Notes under the pieces: model-generated
What the model was told of the DNA's origin: nothing
Databases searched by the model: none
The model's input: only the letters and a program-made list of their open reading frames with translations
Made by a program: the position numbers and the translations under genes
DNA from: a virus
Lineage: Duplodnaviria; Heunggongvirae; Uroviricota; Caudoviricetes
Strand: one strand, 5' to 3'
Length of the DNA stretch: 64,000 bases
IMG/VR virus record: IMGVR_UViG_2675903278_000002
Part shown: positions 8,008-53,936 of the stretch, one piece after another
Layout of the letters: each line of letters starts with the position of its first letter
Numbering within the stretch: the stretch's first letter is position 1

Positions 8008-9714
8008 ATGGAATCGATAGAAGTATTTTTAAAAAATTTTTTGGACTCAGATCATCGGGTTGCTGTCATAAAAGGAAATTGGGGAGTAGGTAAAACGCAT
8101 TATTGGAATAGCTTTTATACTAAACATTCTAAAAAATTAGATTTTAATGCATATTCATATGTTTCTTTGTTTGGAATAAATTCTATTGGAGACATTAAAA
8201 AAGCTCTTTATCATTGTGCCACACCAATTAATGAAAAGAAATATAAAGAACTGATTTTATCTGAAACGGATCGAACTATGATTCGTTATAGAAATGGGTT
8301 TTGGGGATGGTTGAAATACAACTCCTTGTCAAAATTTTTAATACATTTTGGAAAGAACGATTTTTTTGGGTTCAAAACTGATAATCTGCTGTCATCTCTT
8401 GAGTATAAATTTGTTAATAATTATTTGGTTTGCATTGATGATATTGAACGAAAAGGTAGTGCGCTAGAAATTAAAGAGATTATGGGGGTAATTGATGAGT
8501 TGGCAAGAAGAAAAAATTGCAAGGTTGTTCTAATATTAAATGAAGATAACTTACATGAAGAAACTGCACAACAACAGTTTTTAGAGTATAGAGAAAAAAT
8601 AATTGATGTGGAAATAAAATACGATCCCACGCCTGAGAAAAACTTAAGAAAAGTTTTTTATGAGACTGACCCTGATTTTCTTTTGTTAAAAAACCTAGTA
8701 AATGATTTAAACATCAAAAACATTAGAATATTAAATAAAATAAAATCATCTCTAGTTATATTTAGAGATGTGCTAAAGTTAGCAGAGGATAAGGTTAGAG
8801 AAAGTTTTATTAATAGATTGGTCTTATTTTCAGTGGTTTACTATTTTGGTGTTCCTAGCGTTGATTATGCTTCATTTAAGGAGTCAATCAAAAATATACA
8901 TGCATTCGACTATATGTTAGATGATAAAGATGAAAAGGAAGAAGTTAACTCTGTATATTCATTTGTTAATAGCCTTGATGTTATTTATGAACGAGCAGAA
9001 AGTGCTTTCGATGATGATATAGATTTTTACCTTAAGAACGGTTATGTTTCTTCTGAAAGCAATATTCTAAATATAATAAAAGAAAAAAATGAACAATATA
9101 GAGATAATAGGGTTTTATGTGAGGTTTATAAAATTTGGGATGTTTTTAGAAACTCTTTTAAAGATAATGAATCAGAGTTTATTTTTCAAATTGAGCGCGT
9201 AATTAACGATAGTCTGTTGCGTATACCAATTGGACAGTTCGTAGGTTTAATAAATGTCCTAATTAAATTGGATAGAGATTGTAATAATATTATAGAGGCA
9301 TATGCAGATGCTTTTGTTAATAAAGACAATGCGTATGCTACATTTAATTCTTTGCGAGTAGAGATCTTCGGAAATGAAGAATTAGGTTTCAGAATTGAAA
9401 AAAAATTGAAAGATAGAAATCCAGATGACTATAACTTAGATAAAATTATAAAAAAAATAGCTGGTGGAAGATTTAACCATAGTGATGTGAATATTCTTAA
9501 CAGTTTTTCTAAAGATGATTACGTAAACTGGATATTATCCTGTGATCAGGATGCTTTGAATTTAGTAGAAGAGACTATGCTCAAGTTCAAGGGTATGCAA
9601 CACCCGACAGACGAACAGAAGAGCATCACTGATAAAGCAATAGAAGCTTTGGAGGAAGTTGCTTCAAAATCAACACTTAATAAGCTGCGTGTTAATAAAA
9701 TACTCAATCATTAA
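8008..9714 (+). CDS. KAP-family P-loop NTPase
   Basis: Walker A GNWGVGKTHYW near the N-terminus, diagnostic of KAP NTPases; 568 aa; coding sequence visibly far more AT-rich than neighbours. Confidence 0.75.
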   Translation: MESIEVFLKNFLDSDHRVAVIKGNWGVGKTHYWNSFYTKHSKKLDFNAYSYVSLFGINSIGDIKKALYHCATPINEKKYKELILSETDRTMIRYRNGFWGWLKYNSLSKFLIHFGKNDFFGFKTDNLLSSLEYKFVNNYLVCIDDIERKGSALEIKEIMGVIDELARRKNCKVVLILNEDNLHEETAQQQFLEYREKIIDVEIKYDPTPEKNLRKVFYETDPDFLLLKNLVNDLNIKNIRILNKIKSSLVIFRDVLKLAEDKVRESFINRLVLFSVVYYFGVPSVDYASFKESIKNIHAFDYMLDDKDEKEEVNSVYSFVNSLDVIYERAESAFDDDIDFYLKNGYVSSESNILNIIKEKNEQYRDNRVLCEVYKIWDVFRNSFKDNESEFIFQIERVINDSLLRIPIGQFVGLINVLIKLDRDCNNIIEAYADAFVNKDNAYATFNSLRVEIFGNEELGFRIEKKLKDRNPDDYNLDKIIKKIAGGRFNHSDVNILNSFSKDDYVNWILSCDQDALNLVEETMLKFKGMQHPTDEQKSITDKAIEALEEVASKSTLNKLRVNKILNH

Positions 9715-49039: not shown

Positions 49040-50182
49040 ATGTCATATTCAACGTTCCGTTTGGGTGCTAATGATGCAACCAAAGAGCCTATGTTCCTCG
49101 GACAATCTGTCAACGTGGCACGTTACGATCAGCAAAAATACCGTGATTTTGAAAAGTTGATTGAACGTCAATTGTCTTTCTTCTGGCGGCCGGAAGAAGT
49201 TGATATTTCGAGCGATCGTATCGACTTCAACACGAAGCTGCGGGACCACGAACGTCACATTTTTCTGAGCAATCTCCGTTATCAAACGTTACTCGATTCA
49301 GTTCAGGGACGTAGTCCAAATGCAACGCTGCTGCCGCTTATCTCTATTCCTGAACTGGAAACGTGGGTTGAAACGTGGTCTTTCTCTGAGACTATCCATA
49401 GCCGCAGCTACACCCACATTATTCGTGGCATGGTGGACGATCCGAGCATTGTTTTTGACGGTATTGTTACGGATGAAGAAATCATCAACCGAGCGATCAG
49501 TATCTCTGCTGAATATGACAGGCTTTATGGGATGACCTGCGAGCGCCAGTCGTTAGGTGAGAAGGAATTTGAGCGTCTGTACGTAAATGAATATGGCTGG
49601 GAGCCATACCCTTTGCACCGTCAGCTTTTCCGCACGTTGGTGTCCATTAATGCGCTTGAGGCGATCCGTTTCTATGTAAGTTTTGCATGTACGTTTGCCT
49701 TTGGCGAACGGAAGTTGCTTGAGGGTAACACCAAAATTATGCGCTTTATTGCCCGTGATGAAGCTCTGCATTGCGAAGGAACTGAACGCATGATCCGCTT
49801 CATGCGTACCGGTCGCGAAGGTTTATTGTGGAAAGAGATTGCTGCTGATGAAGAAAACGTCATTTACGACACCATGAAATCAGTCGCCGAACAAGAAATG
49901 AACTGGGCAGACTATCTCTTCAAAGACGGTTCGATGATTGGTTTAAACGCGGATATTCTCAAAACCTATGTAAAATACCGCACCAATCTGGCTATGAATC
50001 GTCTTGGCCTGAAGGCTTTATTTCCAGAGGTTACCACCGATCCGCTGGTCTGGATGAACAAGTGGTTGTTAACCGACACACTGCAAATTGCACCACAAGA
50101 GGCAGAGCAAAGCACATATCTGGTAGGTCAGATCGATTCTACCGTGGATAAGGCTTCTCTAAGCCAGTTTGCAGACCTGTAA
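49040..50182 (+). CDS. nrdB: Ribonucleotide reductase beta subunit (NrdB)
   Basis: 380 aa; di-iron ferritin-like motifs ([20 protein letters not shown]); adjacent to nrdA. Confidence 0.9.
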
Positions 50183-50259: not shown

Positions 50260-51129
50260 ATGAACTTTACCAAACTGACTGACCACCTGAAACTTGCCAC
50301 CGATCGACTCATTGGATTTAAGCCAGAACCATATGAGTTGCATGAAGGCCATGGTGTAGCCACTGAAAGTATTTACAAGATGGTCGATCAGTTTCATGAA
50401 CTCTTCCAGCATCCGAGACGCGTTATGCCGACACCAGAGCTGCTTCGTCTCCGTGCAAGCCTGATTCATGAAGAAGCTGTAGTGGAAGGTATTCCAGCCG
50501 CAATGAATGGGGATATTGAGCAACTGCTGGATGCAATGGCCGACTTTTTATACGTTGGTGTTGGTACGATGGTCGCCATCAAAGGTGGTATTTCTACCGG
50601 CATGACCTATTACACGCAGGAACAGAGCATTGATCGCTTTATGCAGACAATTTTTGTGCCCGGTAACACTGTTTTCGATGATATGGCAATGCCATTTCAG
50701 GAAGCTCGTGAGGCGTCATGTATGCTCGAAGAGCTGGCAGATAAACTTGAGAACAAGACTGTTAAGGATTCTGAGCTGATTCAGGAACTGCGCCGTGTCA
50801 TGAACAAAATCTATGTGGCGTGCATGATGACCTATCGACTGGCTGATTTCCTCGGTATCAATGTAGTCGAGCTGGTTGGCGAAATTCATCGGTCTAACAT
50901 GACAAAATTATGGCCTGCTGATGTTGAGGAACGTCGCCAGGCTGTGGCCAACTGCAAATACGACTCTTCAGATCTGGGATTCCGCCATGCTGATGGCACC
51001 GATAAGATGATCGGTTTTCGAATTTCCGATGGAAAGATTCTGAAGTCTCCAACCTATAGTGATGTCGATTTATCCTCCTTTGTTGAGCAAGCTAAAGCCT
51101 CAGCAATGTACGGAATGATCAAAAAATAA
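50260..51129 (+). CDS. Hypothetical protein, possibly MazG-like nucleotide pyrophosphohydrolase
   Basis: Helical EE/D-rich segments (LIHEEAVVEG, LEELADKLE) reminiscent of all-alpha NTP pyrophosphatases; weak. Confidence 0.35.
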   Translation: MNFTKLTDHLKLATDRLIGFKPEPYELHEGHGVATESIYKMVDQFHELFQHPRRVMPTPELLRLRASLIHEEAVVEGIPAAMNGDIEQLLDAMADFLYVGVGTMVAIKGGISTGMTYYTQEQSIDRFMQTIFVPGNTVFDDMAMPFQEAREASCMLEELADKLENKTVKDSELIQELRRVMNKIYVACMMTYRLADFLGINVVELVGEIHRSNMTKLWPADVEERRQAVANCKYDSSDLGFRHADGTDKMIGFRISDGKILKSPTYSDVDLSSFVEQAKASAMYGMIKK

Positions 51130-51198
51130 TTGTAGGTAGTTATCTATCTGTGTATATTGCGTTGGCGCGTTAAATTTCTGAAACAACTATTCGTTTTT

Positions 51199-51224
51199 GG
51201 TGGCCTATGGCCACCATTTTTTTA
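51199..51224 (+). terminator. Rho-independent terminator
   Basis: GGTGGCC-TAT-GGCCACC followed by ATTTTTTTA. Confidence 0.7.
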
Positions 51225-51300
51225 TCTGTCTGGTCTTGTTCTCTCAATAAATGTAAACTCACGCAATGAATAAGTGGTTACTTATCTTTGTGAGGTTTTT

Positions 51301-52404
51301 GTGTCACTCCTTTTGAATCGTGAGCATACGAACGGTCAGGTAACAAACGCATCGTATGCAAAAGTTATTGAGACGGTGCTTAAAAGCGGCGTGCAGGCTG
51401 ATGATCGCACAGGCACTGGTACTTTAAGCACCTGCTACGTTCCCTCTTACTACATGCTTACTGGTGGGACTGTGCCGCTTATTTCTGGAAAGGCGGTAAA
51501 TCTTAAGCCACTGCTTGTCGAACTTGAGTGGTATCTGAAAGGCACGGGCAACATCCAATTTCTCAAGGATAACGGCGTTAAGATTTGGGATGCATGGGCC
51601 GATGAGAATGGCGATTTGGGGCCGGTTTACGGTAAGCAGTGGCGTCGATGGGAAGATACCCGCATCGTGAGCCATAGTGAATATCTGAGCAAGATCGCTA
51701 CTTTCCGTGAACGCGGGTACAAAGTCGAGGGATACCTGGGTATCAGTGAAGATCGCGTAGTGCTGTCCCGTGAAATCGATCAGCTACAGCGTATTGTCGA
51801 TACACTGCGCACGAACCCTACCGATCGTCGCATCATGCTTAACGCATGGAACGTAGGCGAGCTTGAGGATATGAAACTGCCACCTTGCCACTTTGTCTTC
51901 TCTTTGTGGAGTCGTGAGCTGGATTTTGAAACCCGTTTAACGATGGCAACTGACATTGGTCTTCAACACAGTCGCCTCGGTTATGAGTCTATCTACACCA
52001 AGATGCTATACGATCTGGAGATGGACGGCAGTGTTACTGAAACTGAACTGGATGAACTTGGAATCCCCAAACGCATCCTCAACTCCTGCCTCGTACAGCG
52101 TAGCGTAGACACTTTTGTTGGTATGCCATTCAATATTGCTGGCTATGGCATTCTCACTCATTTTCTCGCGAAGATTACGGGTCACATGGCCGGTGCATTT
52201 GTGCATTTTGGCTTTGACGTGCATTTATACAATAACCACATGGAAAGTGTGTGTGAGCTAATGAAACGACAGGCTCCAGAGCATTCAGATCCGGTCGTTA
52301 TTTTCCCTCATGAATGGTCTGAGCTGGATGATTTCAAATGGGACGATATTCTGATTCTTGGCTATGACCCTCTACCGTGGATCAAGGTTCCAGTGGCGGT
52401 GTGA
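51301..52404 (+). CDS. thyA: Thymidylate synthase family enzyme (ThyA-like, with insertions; dCMP/dUMP hydroxymethylase not excluded)
   Basis: Motifs DRTGTGT, GPVYGKQWR, catalytic PPCH, QRSVDTFVGMPFNIAGY; start set at GTG 51301. Confidence 0.75.
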   Translation: MSLLLNREHTNGQVTNASYAKVIETVLKSGVQADDRTGTGTLSTCYVPSYYMLTGGTVPLISGKAVNLKPLLVELEWYLKGTGNIQFLKDNGVKIWDAWADENGDLGPVYGKQWRRWEDTRIVSHSEYLSKIATFRERGYKVEGYLGISEDRVVLSREIDQLQRIVDTLRTNPTDRRIMLNAWNVGELEDMKLPPCHFVFSLWSRELDFETRLTMATDIGLQHSRLGYESIYTKMLYDLEMDGSVTETELDELGIPKRILNSCLVQRSVDTFVGMPFNIAGYGILTHFLAKITGHMAGAFVHFGFDVHLYNNHMESVCELMKRQAPEHSDPVVIFPHEWSELDDFKWDDILILGYDPLPWIKVPVAV

Positions 52405-52405
52405 T

Positions 52406-52819
52406 ATGGCAAGAGGTATGTATGTCTTATGCGAAATTGAAGGTGTGCTGGCAAATGCCAGCCATCGTAAATCAGTATCTGACGCGGATGCAGGCCAGCT
52501 CATTGCCGGTGATGAACTCATTTTCCCCACCAGCCGTATGTTGCGTGGTTTTGCTCGCTCAGGGGCTGAAGTGGTGCTTATCAGTAGCCGCTCTGAAACT
52601 CTTGAAGCGCCAACTAAACGATGGCTGAAAGATTTTGGCGTTGATTATGACTGGCTTCATCTCGTACCGAATGGCACCAGTTATGAGAAGCATATTAAGC
52701 GCACATTAGCGGAGCATAAAGGCGATCTGCTTATCGCTGCGCTGGTGCACGATCCTCGACTCCGTGCCGCTTTAGCCGACTCTCACCATCGACCGGTCAT
52801 CTATGAGGTGAGCAAATGA
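52406..52819 (+). CDS. Hypothetical protein
   Basis: ATG 52406 just after the thyA stop; stop overlaps the DHFR start. Confidence 0.4.
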   Translation: MARGMYVLCEIEGVLANASHRKSVSDADAGQLIAGDELIFPTSRMLRGFARSGAEVVLISSRSETLEAPTKRWLKDFGVDYDWLHLVPNGTSYEKHIKRTLAEHKGDLLIAALVHDPRLRAALADSHHRPVIYEVSK

Positions 52820-53292
52820 AGATGATCGCTGCTGTTGGCCGTAACTATGAGATCGGCATAGCGAATGAACTCCCCTGGCGTTGTTCTACCGATCTGAAGC
52901 TATTTAAGAGACTCACCAAAAACGCCACTGTCGTTATGGGGCGTAAAACGATGGAAAGTCTCAAACGCCCTCTTCCAGAGCGTCATAACCTCGTTTTGAC
53001 GCGCTCTCATGGCTTTGTACCAAATGGATTCTACCCTGCTGGTGTGGATGATGTGTTGCGATTACCAGAGCCTGTGTGGGTGATTGGCGGGGAACAAATT
53101 TACTCGCTATTCATGCCGCATGTTGAAGAGATTTGGCTCTCCCACATCGGCGTTGATGTGCCAAACGCCGATGCATTCTTCCCGGCAAGCATGATGCGTA
53201 ATTTAGGCTTTGTGCCTGTTGAAACAGCTTATACCCAACGAGCCAGCGAGGAAGAGCCTGGCTTTTCGCAGATCGTATACAGAAGGTCGTAA
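52816..53292 (+). CDS. folA: Dihydrofolate reductase
   Basis: MKMIAAVGRNYEIGIANELPW, VVMGRKT, VWVIGGEQIY motifs; 158 aa. Confidence 0.85.
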   Translation: MKMIAAVGRNYEIGIANELPWRCSTDLKLFKRLTKNATVVMGRKTMESLKRPLPERHNLVLTRSHGFVPNGFYPAGVDDVLRLPEPVWVIGGEQIYSLFMPHVEEIWLSHIGVDVPNADAFFPASMMRNLGFVPVETAYTQRASEEEPGFSQIVYRRS

Positions 53293-53936
53293 TGGATTAC
53301 CGGATTGGGATCACTGGTGCTCAGGGCAGTGGGAAAACAACCCTGGCTAAATATATCGACAAACATTACGGAATCCCTTACGTGGATGCTGGTGTCGGAA
53401 GTTTGATGAGCCGCCTCGGTGTTCGAGTAGGTGATTCTATGCCTCTATATGAGCGGCTTCAGATTCAAATGGAAATAGCAAAGCATATAGAGCTACTTAC
53501 GCGTGGTGTTGAAGGCTTTGTTATCGATCGCACACCTGCTGATGTTATGGCCTACACGTTGGATTTGGTCGGCCATACAAATGAAGATCGGTGTATTGAG
53601 TTAGCCCTCGATATCGAAAAGTTTTGCCACAAAACTGCTATTTCAAACTTTAACGCCATTGCTGGCTTACGCCCGGGAGTCGCTCTCTCAGAGCGAGATT
53701 ACTTGCGATCACAACGAGCATCATTAGACCGTCTGTATGTCGCTCGTATTGATGCGTTGATGTGCGGGGAACTGACAAAAATTCACCTGCATCCGCAAAG
53801 GGGAGATCTGCAAACCTTCGTCGTTTCCAACCGATATCGCACGGTTGAAGCAAGAGCCAGATCAGTGATGAGAATGCTAGATAACGCTGTAGAAAAGATA
53901 GAAAACCGGTTCTGTGGCCGAGTGACCGTTCATTAG
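53292..53936 (+). CDS. P-loop nucleotide/nucleoside kinase (dNMP kinase-like)
   Basis: Walker A ITGAQGSGKTT at the N-terminus; 214 aa; within the nucleotide metabolism block. Confidence 0.5.
   Translation: MDYRIGITGAQGSGKTTLAKYIDKHYGIPYVDAGVGSLMSRLGVRVGDSMPLYERLQIQMEIAKHIELLTRGVEGFVIDRTPADVMAYTLDLVGHTNEDRCIELALDIEKFCHKTAISNFNAIAGLRPGVALSERDYLRSQRASLDRLYVARIDALMCGELTKIHLHPQRGDLQTFVVSNRYRTVEARARSVMRMLDNAVEKIENRFCGRVTVH

Follow-up and report, generated by a model that had tools for sequence, protein, structure and literature searches.

The gene, its product and the active site

The subject of this analysis is an unusually long thymidylate synthase (TS) homologue, encoded at positions 51301 to 52404 on the + strand of a 64,000-nucleotide stretch of DNA from a virus of the Caudoviricetes (IMG/VR record IMGVR_UViG_2675903278_000002; the whole stretch is referred to here as the window). 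The region concerned is 98-99% identical to Escherichia phages Cyrano, PhiR41_1 and CMS-2020a and 77% identical to Salmonella phage SSU5, and because of these identities the source is taken to be an SSU5-like phage-plasmid. The features of the gene and of the sequence just upstream of it are listed here in order of position, with residue numbers referring to the 367-residue product.

51198..51226, + strand: intrinsic-terminator-like hairpin TGGTGGCC TAT GGCCACCA (51198-51216) with a T-run; found by pattern scan, as a match to consensus only
51292..51303, + strand: ribosome-binding site GAGG (51292-51295), 5-nucleotide spacer and GTG start codon (51301-51303); sequence inspection
51301..52404, + strand: thyA-type thymidylate synthase gene, 367 residues plus stop codon; Pfam PF00303
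51301..51345, + strand: N-terminal extension of 15 residues relative to E. coli ThyA (residues 1-15); alignment A1
51655..51774, + strand: insert 1, residues 119-158, a net gain of 34 residues replacing E. coli residues 103-108, in the small-domain loop after the WRxW motif
51886..51891, + strand: catalytic Cys196-His197 of the PPCH motif (E. coli Cys146-His147), invariant in 26 of 26 long homologues
51919..52071, + strand: insert 2, residues 207-257, 51 additional residues, a three-helix module between the equivalents of E. coli Asp156 and Gly157
52132..52134, + strand: codon for Asn278 (E. coli Asn177), the position of uracil-versus-cytosine specificity; Asn in 26 of 26 homologues
52390..52401, + strand: C-terminal Pro-Val-Ala-Val, residues 364-367 (PVAI in E. 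coli); alignment

The open reading frame as a whole runs from 51274 to 52404 on the + strand and offers two in-frame GTG starts, at 51274 and 51301, of which the former (giving 376 residues) has no ribosome-binding site and the latter is the better choice. The equivalent of GTG 51301 is also the annotated start in SSU5, Cyrano and pJN2-26, the codon there being TTG in SSU5 and pJN2-26 (L001:13125 and L005:3001), so that a non-ATG start is seen in all three genomes in which the codon was compared. The reading frame is continuous, and the gene is 1104 nucleotides long in both SSU5 and pJN2-26, with no insertions or deletions relative to the window gene; the SSU5 orthologue of this length, SSU5_081, is annotated simply as “thymidylate synthase”. 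In the public annotation of Cyrano the orthologue (CYRAN_72, L004 13101-14204) is labelled “ThyX Thymidylate synthase”, which names the wrong family, since the protein belongs to the ThyA family PF00303 and not to flavin-dependent ThyX. The terminator-like hairpin is placed between the preceding MazG-like gene and thyA, and suggests that thyA is the start of a separate or attenuated transcription unit; taken together with the non-ATG start, it may be a sign that expression of the first gene of the operon is deliberately kept low or is regulated.

Relative to the 264 residues of E. coli ThyA (PDB 2TSC, 1TYS and others) the protein is longer by 103 residues, or by 112 if the longer start is used, so that the figure of about 110 given in the original prediction was a fair one. 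The greater part of this excess is made up of the N-terminal extension (15 residues), insert 1 (net 34) and insert 2 (51). A length accounting between invariant motifs gives 264 + 16 + 34 + 51 + 2 = 367, where the 16 residues gained before E. coli Trp80 comprise the 15-residue extension and one loop residue, and the final 2 fall in the C-terminal part. In agreement with this, a phmmer search against the PDB returns E. coli ThyA in three blocks (query 18-118 matching E. coli 3-102, 156-203 matching 106-153, and 261-367 matching 160-264). The three large blocks of the E. coli reference sequence used agree with the PDB alignments, and the human and L. casei TS sequences used are identical to PDB entries 1HW3 and 1LCA. 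The view that the extra length is internal and does not come from a mis-called N-terminus is borne out by this motif-anchored accounting, the choice of start shifting the length by only 9 residues.

Membership of the family is clear from profile searches, with 266.7 bits against Pfam Thymidylat_synt (PF00303; threshold 24.3, E = 2.3e-79), 223.3 bits against TIGR03284 (cut-off 108.35), and a match at 1.3e-95 to the phage protein family phrog_160, as compared with only 3.3e-17 to phrog_5131. AlphaFold2, given 45 homologues, yields a model with a mean predicted local distance difference test score (pLDDT) of 92.8, and a Foldseek comparison of the model with E. coli TS gives E = 1.8e-30 with template-modelling scores of 0.94 for the target (TMt) and 0.68 for the query (TMq). 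Over aligned columns the protein shares 44% identity with E. coli ThyA, and the two enzymes have in common their fold, their catalytic, dUMP-binding and folate-binding residues (dUMP being deoxyuridine monophosphate) and the C-terminal tail.

When 28 positions of E. coli ThyA were mapped through the alignment, 25 proved to be identical in the window protein, namely (in E. coli numbering) R21, G23, K48, E58, I79, W80, W83, Y94, R126, R127, L143, C146, H147, Q165, R166, S167, D169, G173, F176, N177, H207, Y209, P261, V262 and A263; the three that differ are H51N, L172V and I264V. Together with the Pfam match and the alignment, this upholds the earlier assignment of the protein as a ThyA homologue retaining all of the catalytic motifs. 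The catalytic and binding residues among the checked positions are invariant in the 26 long homologues, and besides the Cys-His pair already listed they include Glu74 and Tyr110 (E. coli Glu58 and Tyr94), each found in 26 of 26. The cage around the dUMP phosphate is complete (Arg36, Arg176, Arg177, Arg267 and Ser268, corresponding to E. coli Arg21, Arg126', Arg127', Arg166 and Ser167), and the ligands of the 3'-hydroxyl are kept as His308 and Tyr310 (E. coli His207 and Tyr209). Also kept are Ile95, Trp96, Trp99, Asp270 and Phe277, the equivalents of E. coli Ile79, Trp80, Trp83, Asp169 and Phe176, whose roles in binding folate and shielding the reaction intermediate are part of established TS enzymology, as is the closing of the C-terminal tail over the folate cofactor. 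Asn278 bears on the choice of base, given that Asn or Asp at E. coli position 177 acts as the switch between uracil and cytosine and that changing Asn to Asp turns a TS towards deoxycytidine monophosphate (dCMP) (PMC8670742).

One departure from the canonical pattern lies in the first beta-strand of the TS sheet (51427-51468, residues 43-56), which reads STCYVPSYYMLTGG in the SSU5-like clade as against SIFGHQMRFNLQDG, the highly conserved form of canonical ThyA; the canonical form is retained in more distant enzymes carrying both insertions. In human TS, Phe59 plugs the Tyr202 pocket of the interface (PMC9831607), and because the first strand diverges in this way the equivalent segment must be regarded as remodelled in the SSU5-like clade.

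The two insertions and their distribution

The original prediction had placed insertions around residues 130-200 and 230-280, which is roughly right but too broad, as in the numbering of the 376-residue version they occupy 128-167 and 216-266. In the AlphaFold2 model insert 1 comprises a strand (117-124), two helices (125-130 and 132-137) and two further strands (141-146 and 152-159), with pLDDT values of 88-97 over ten-residue blocks, and it carries the conserved motifs DTR..V and RGY. Insert 2, which sits at the turn of the beta-hairpin that follows the strand bearing the catalytic Cys, is predicted to form helices at 209-225, 231-242 and 247-253 (block pLDDT 95-98); its motifs are ER at the start and LD..IPRR.L at the end, with Arg212 invariant in the 24-row alignment A4 and nearly so in A1, and Pro256 nearly invariant. 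Since residues 205-259 modelled in isolation are still predicted to fold, at a pLDDT of 96.8, insert 2 behaves in these models as an autonomous mini-domain. Conservation is lowest in the N-terminal extension (53% identity to SSU5), where the model gives a pLDDT of 52 over residues 1-10, with helix A beginning at residue 11.

Selection was gauged from ratios of nonsynonymous to synonymous differences per site (pN/pS), dN/dS itself being precluded by the saturation of synonymous sites among the genomes compared. The comparisons with SSU5 and pJN2-26 gave 0.06 and 0.26 in insert 1 and 0.15 and 0.21 in insert 2, as against 0.07 and 0.16 in the core, and by this measure both insertions are under purifying selection only slightly weaker than that on the core. 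The base composition of the insertions (fractions of G + C of 0.52 and 0.45) is not aberrant. Searching Pfam with the isolated insertions returned nothing for insert 2 and, for insert 1, only a sub-threshold match to Sedlin_N (E = 0.11). A word-indexed protein search with insert 2 by itself gave no scored match, which for so short a query carries no information. No PDB structure found by Foldseek covers the insertions (maximum TMq 0.71) and no description of them was found in the open-access literature searched for the enzyme or its insertions. Coverage of the model is better among the predicted viral structures of BFVD, led by A0A1C3NFC4 (TMq 0.86) and the TS of Pseudomonas phage 201phi2-1 (TMq 0.83).

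Comparison with well-characterised enzymes helps to place these insertions. Human TS (313 residues) has an 8-residue insertion exactly at the site of insert 1, together with 12 extra residues in the stretch between the IWD motif and Tyr94, where L. casei TS (316 residues) has its own 50-residue insertion but the window protein has no insertion. At the site of insert 2, none of the human, L. casei and E. coli enzymes has anything additional. The human and L. casei enzymes thus show that insertions can be accommodated in the small domain with the reaction left as it is, and the 8 residues in human TS imply that insert 1 enlarges a loop that was already variable. As to insert 2, the absence of insertions or deletions between the catalytic Cys and the start of this segment means that Trp203 of the window protein can be equated with human Tyr202 (Cys195 + 7), which lies at the perimeter of the dimer interface (PMC9831607). 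Insert 2 begins 4 residues after Trp203, at the hairpin turn, and it would therefore probably stick out at the edge of the dimer interface, from the strand end that is farther from the active site.

The closest relatives of the protein are 50-99% identical, have 350-378 residues, and are encoded on contigs of roughly 100-120 kb whose hosts are Salmonella, Klebsiella, Enterobacter, Raoultella, Providencia, Morganella and Xenorhabdus. Beyond these there is a wider set of enzymes of 315-355 residues, at 37-41% identity, with insertions at the same two sites and with shared motifs, and the next-best matches among phage genomes are to the jumbo phages SPN3US, SEGD1, Erwinia Machina, Wellington, Asesino and Cronobacter CR5. 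For convenience a two-insert subtype was defined, informally, by at least 15 residues at site 1 (after WRxW), at least 20 residues at site 2 (the hairpin after the PCH strand), and the DTR/RGY and ER...LD..IPRR.L motifs; the window protein has 34 and 51 residues at these sites and carries the motifs. The predicted TSs of jumbo phages (201phi2-1, B3FJL1; SPN3US, SEGD1, Machina, Wellington and CR5) and of metagenomic sequences (P0038-P0062 and P0121-P0125) share both insertion sites and motifs with it at 38-41% identity; they are usually shorter (315-355 residues), although the 201phi2-1 enzyme has 457, and unlike the window gene they have no adjacent gene for dihydrofolate reductase (DHFR) in their neighbourhoods. 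Two metagenomic members whose surroundings were looked at lie in phage-like contexts. The two-insert subtype is mainly phage-borne, and common to phage-plasmids and jumbo phages.

Of the close matches, 216 allowed both sites to be measured. By the size criteria just given, both insertions are present in 90 of these; a further 24 have an insertion at site 1 alone, 25 at site 2 alone, and the remaining 77 at neither site. As the sample favours relatives of the query, these counts do not estimate prevalence. The corresponding odds ratio for co-occurrence is 11.6, uncorrected for phylogeny. Both sites are hot spots for insertion and deletion, with up to 272 extra residues at site 1 and up to 80 at site 2, and the spacing at the L. 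casei site reaches 218 residues as against 14 in E. coli. The extremes occur in metagenomic TSs: insertions of 184-272 residues at site 1 are found in P0133, P0140, P0145, P0170, P0184, P0154 and P0165, and the largest spacings at the L. casei site in P0156 and P0222. These very large insertions could be inteins, remnants of homing endonucleases or whole inserted domains.

The surrounding operon

Around thyA the order of genes is nrdA, nrdB, a MazG-like gene, the hairpin, thyA, a HAD-like gene, the DHFR gene, a kinase-like gene, a gene for a protein of 139 residues, and an exonuclease gene of RNase T type. Those nearest to thyA are as follows.

49040..50182, + strand: nrdB, ribonucleotide reductase small subunit (Ribonuc_red_sm 4.5e-46), with nrdA further upstream; synteny with SSU5 and Cyrano
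50260..51129, + strand: MazG-like nucleoside triphosphate pyrophosphohydrolase gene, upstream of thyA (PRA-PH 1.3e-8; phrog_671 1e-47)
52406..52819, + strand: HAD/PNKP-phosphatase-like gene, 137 residues (HAD_PNKP 1.1e-4, below cut-off; phrog_5387 3.6e-90; Pnkp1 in the PDB 1.9e-5)
52816..53292, + strand: dihydrofolate reductase gene, 158 residues (DHFR_1 1.6e-34), with an ATGA overlap with the gene upstream
53292..53936, + strand: P-loop kinase-like gene, 214 residues (AAA_28 1.4e-9), overlapping the DHFR stop codon (TAATG); its function is inferred

The ATG of the HAD-like gene lies 1 nucleotide past the thyA stop codon, and the successive junctions TGAtATG, ATGA and TAATG indicate that thyA, the HAD-like gene, the DHFR gene and the kinase-like gene are translationally coupled. 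The order nrdA-nrdB-MazG-thyA-HAD-DHFR-AAA_28-x-RNase T is kept in a plasmid-like contig from Xenorhabdus (56% identity in TS) and in a metagenomic contig (51%). The kinase-like protein also matches (d)CMP kinase and a thymidylate-kinase phrog (4.8e-10), in both cases weakly.

The DHFR is of particular relevance because a TS needs such an enzyme, its folate being oxidised to dihydrofolate, whereas a dUMP hydroxymethylase does not (PMC4528723). The DHFR of the window is 90.6% identical to the SSU5 enzyme DfrA51 and 79% identical to the DHFR of pJN2-26, which in turn differs by four residues from DfrA50 (the enzyme of ST13-OXA48phi12.3). Both DfrA51 (from SSU5) and DfrA50 (from a Klebsiella phage-plasmid) give trimethoprim resistance when expressed in E. 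coli (PMC12217456), and on the strength of the sequence identity to these proven enzymes the window probably carries a dfrA51-like resistance determinant.

In the HAD-like protein motif I reads LCEIEGVL, as against VICDLDGTL in Pnkp1, so that both Asp residues, including the nucleophile, are replaced by Glu. This ExE form is conserved in SSU5, Cyrano and pJN2-26, while TxD is found in a Xenorhabdus relative and the canonical DxD in a metagenomic one that is more distant (the loci compared include L001:14230-14643, L005:4106-4519, L010:7144-7581 and L011:7095-7532). Given the replacement of the motif-I aspartates, the protein of the SSU5 lineage may be a pseudo-phosphatase or have an altered chemistry; the gene is nevertheless retained and translationally coupled. 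In a PADLOC search neither the TS nor the MazG-like or HAD-like protein matched a defence system. Far from this operon, at 8008-9714 on the + strand, there is a low-GC island (about 27-33% as against about 46% elsewhere) adjoining a ParA-like partition gene; its product, a KAP-family P-loop NTPase of 568 residues, matches the candidate defence system PDC-S49 in PADLOC (1.5e-21), and it is probably a horizontally acquired defence gene.

Reaction, role of the insertions and significance

In the light of all this, the protein is very probably a genuine ThyA-type thymidylate synthase of the phage-borne two-insert subtype, forming part of a nucleotide-supply module of an SSU5-like phage-plasmid. 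Its reaction would be dUMP + 5,10-methylene-tetrahydrofolate → dTMP + dihydrofolate (dTMP being deoxythymidine monophosphate), with the coupled DHFR recycling the dihydrofolate. It would act as the usual homodimer; the Arg126'/Arg127' pair, which in TS is donated across the interface, is present. Together with NrdAB, the MazG-like protein, which as a nucleoside triphosphate pyrophosphohydrolase possibly supplies the dUMP, and the kinase-like protein, it would be expected to raise the supply of deoxythymidine triphosphate (dTTP) during phage replication. A number of points weigh on the other side. Scores against the strict equivalog models of NCBI fall below their cut-offs (for NF002497, 265 against 327), and the protein therefore lies outside the curated clusters of cellular ThyA; no DHFR is listed in the neighbourhoods of P0046 and P0087, which are more distant two-insert enzymes; the open-access literature yielded no biochemical or genetic test of the enzyme or of any two-insert relative; and the MazG-, HAD- and kinase-like neighbours superficially resemble the dTTPase, dTMPase and deoxynucleoside monophosphate (dNMP) kinase set of SPO1 (PMC8989533).

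This last resemblance leads to the alternative raised in the original prediction, namely that the enzyme might be a hydroxymethylase acting on dUMP or dCMP. Taken in its dUMP form, the proposal would have the enzyme make 5-hydroxymethyl-dUMP (5-hmdUMP) for DNA containing hydroxymethyluracil or hypermodified thymidine, with the MazG-, HAD- and kinase-like proteins serving as dTTPase, dTMPase and hmdUMP kinase. Phages do use the TS fold for that reaction (PMC8989533), and the suspicion was worth testing because a proven dUMP enzyme, SPO1 gp29, is also long (383 residues); gp29 resembles the window protein further in its TS superfamily fold, its catalytic Cys and the Asn at the base-specificity position. 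Comparison of the two (the gp29 and T4 gp42 sequences being taken from their GenBank records) nevertheless makes this very improbable. The length of gp29 comes from a C-terminal extension, neither insertion being present, and it is only 19% identical to the window protein (pairwise E = 0.022). It also lacks Trp80 and Trp83, His147 (having PCN in place of PCH) and the PVAV tail, all of which the window protein keeps; where gp29 has M-GQFSDDG... and a long unrelated C-terminus, the window protein has IWDAWADENGDLGPVYGKQWR and PVAV, and we infer that the differences in the Trp pair and the tail explain hydration as against hydride transfer. Furthermore gp29 belongs to phrog_5131 (2.5e-136), the window protein to phrog_160 (1.3e-95). 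A tblastn search with gp29 as the query leads to ViI-like phages of Salmonella and M6/PAE1-like phages of Pseudomonas as carriers of the SPO1-type enzyme, and both are groups with DNA derived from 5-hydroxymethyldeoxyuridine. The HAD-like neighbour is a poor candidate for a dTMPase because its Asp nucleophile has been lost (ExE for DxD), and in the roughly 93 of 103 kb of the SSU5 record that were read, many genes of which are hypothetical, no dCMP deaminase, glycosyltransferase or 5-hydroxymethyluracil DNA kinase is annotated. A coupled DHFR of functional type would be superfluous for a hydroxymethylase (PMC4528723). In Bastille-like Bacillus phages the pairing of a canonical TS1 with a nearby DHFR marks ordinary dTMP makers, unlike the SPO1-like phages that bear the hydroxymethylase, although these are different phages with different hosts, and the paper on them reports no two-insert architecture (PMC4528723). 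The dCMP form of the proposal, a deoxycytidylate methylase or hydroxymethylase like T4 gp42, deserves practically no credence: the fold is shared and T4 gp42 also falls within the broad family phrog_160, but gp42 (246 residues) has Asp at the position of Asn177, where the window protein and all 26 long homologues have Asn, MCT in place of PCH, no insertions and a truncated C-terminus without the PVAV tail, while Gln165 and the PFNIA motif of the window protein are TS-like. With Asn278 in place of Asp, Trp80, Trp83, Asp169, Phe176 and the PVAV tail kept, gp29 distant and a DHFR coupled, the hydroxymethylase suggestion was thus not sustained. The original prediction had also allowed that the specificity residues might match those of ThyA exactly, which they do, and that the additional length might be due to N-terminal mis-annotation, which it is not.

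That the extra length might be some kind of artefact (a wrongly chosen start, a frameshift, read-through, or an intron or intein left unspliced, as with the td intron of T4) is suggested in principle by the two in-frame GTG starts, and phage TS genes are known hosts of introns. It is as good as inconceivable here, however, as the choice of start accounts for just 9 residues, the frame is continuous with equal lengths in SSU5 and pJN2-26, and the inserted segments are in frame, predicted with high confidence to be folded and under purifying selection, besides which 40 and 51 residues are far below the size of any intein. N-terminal mis-annotation, an intron and an intein are each ruled out by the split phmmer blocks, the equal lengths of the orthologues and the folding predicted for the inserts. 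A different kind of alternative accepts a normal TS and takes the two insertions as no more than tolerated surface decorations, at loops that permit insertion and deletion, with no specific function. This is a genuine possibility, though on balance the chances lie somewhat against it: both insertions are predicted to be well-ordered mini-domains, their pN/pS ratios are near that of the core, the DTR and RGY motifs, Arg212 and LD..IPRR.L are kept across phage enzymes of about 40% identity, and the two insertions co-occur to the extent already given (again without correction for phylogeny).

Returning to the reading of the protein as a thymidylate synthase, the insertions would appear to be surface modules that leave the reaction unchanged. 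As a best guess, which is the weakest step in the argument, insert 2 might buttress or extend the dimer interface and insert 1 the small domain, or else the insertions might offer a docking surface for a partner protein; docking specifically to DHFR is unlikely, as no DHFR is listed near the distant two-insert enzymes P0046 and P0087. A more ambitious proposal, for which the prospects seem rather slim, sees a phage-specific class of TS marked out by the insertions as a functional addition, with its chemistry unchanged; the insertions would serve jointly as a platform for dimer stability or for docking (to a complex for deoxynucleoside triphosphate synthesis, or to a regulator), or else make the enzyme insensitive to some control that the host exerts on ThyA.

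For annotation, the consequence is that this long “ThyA” stays a thymidylate synthase, and that there is no reason to expect modified pyrimidines in the DNA of SSU5-like phage-plasmids. What is new is a structural variant of a very well-known enzyme, which does not by itself raise a new biological question, but TS has a long history as a drug target and model enzyme, and a natural variant with an extended interface could be of interest to enzymologists. For the biology of these elements, having a TS and a DHFR of trimethoprim-resistant type (the DfrA50/51 family) in one operon would amount to a self-contained dTMP cycle of relevance to antifolates, with the DfrA50/51-type DHFR being carried by widespread phage-plasmids of the Enterobacterales.

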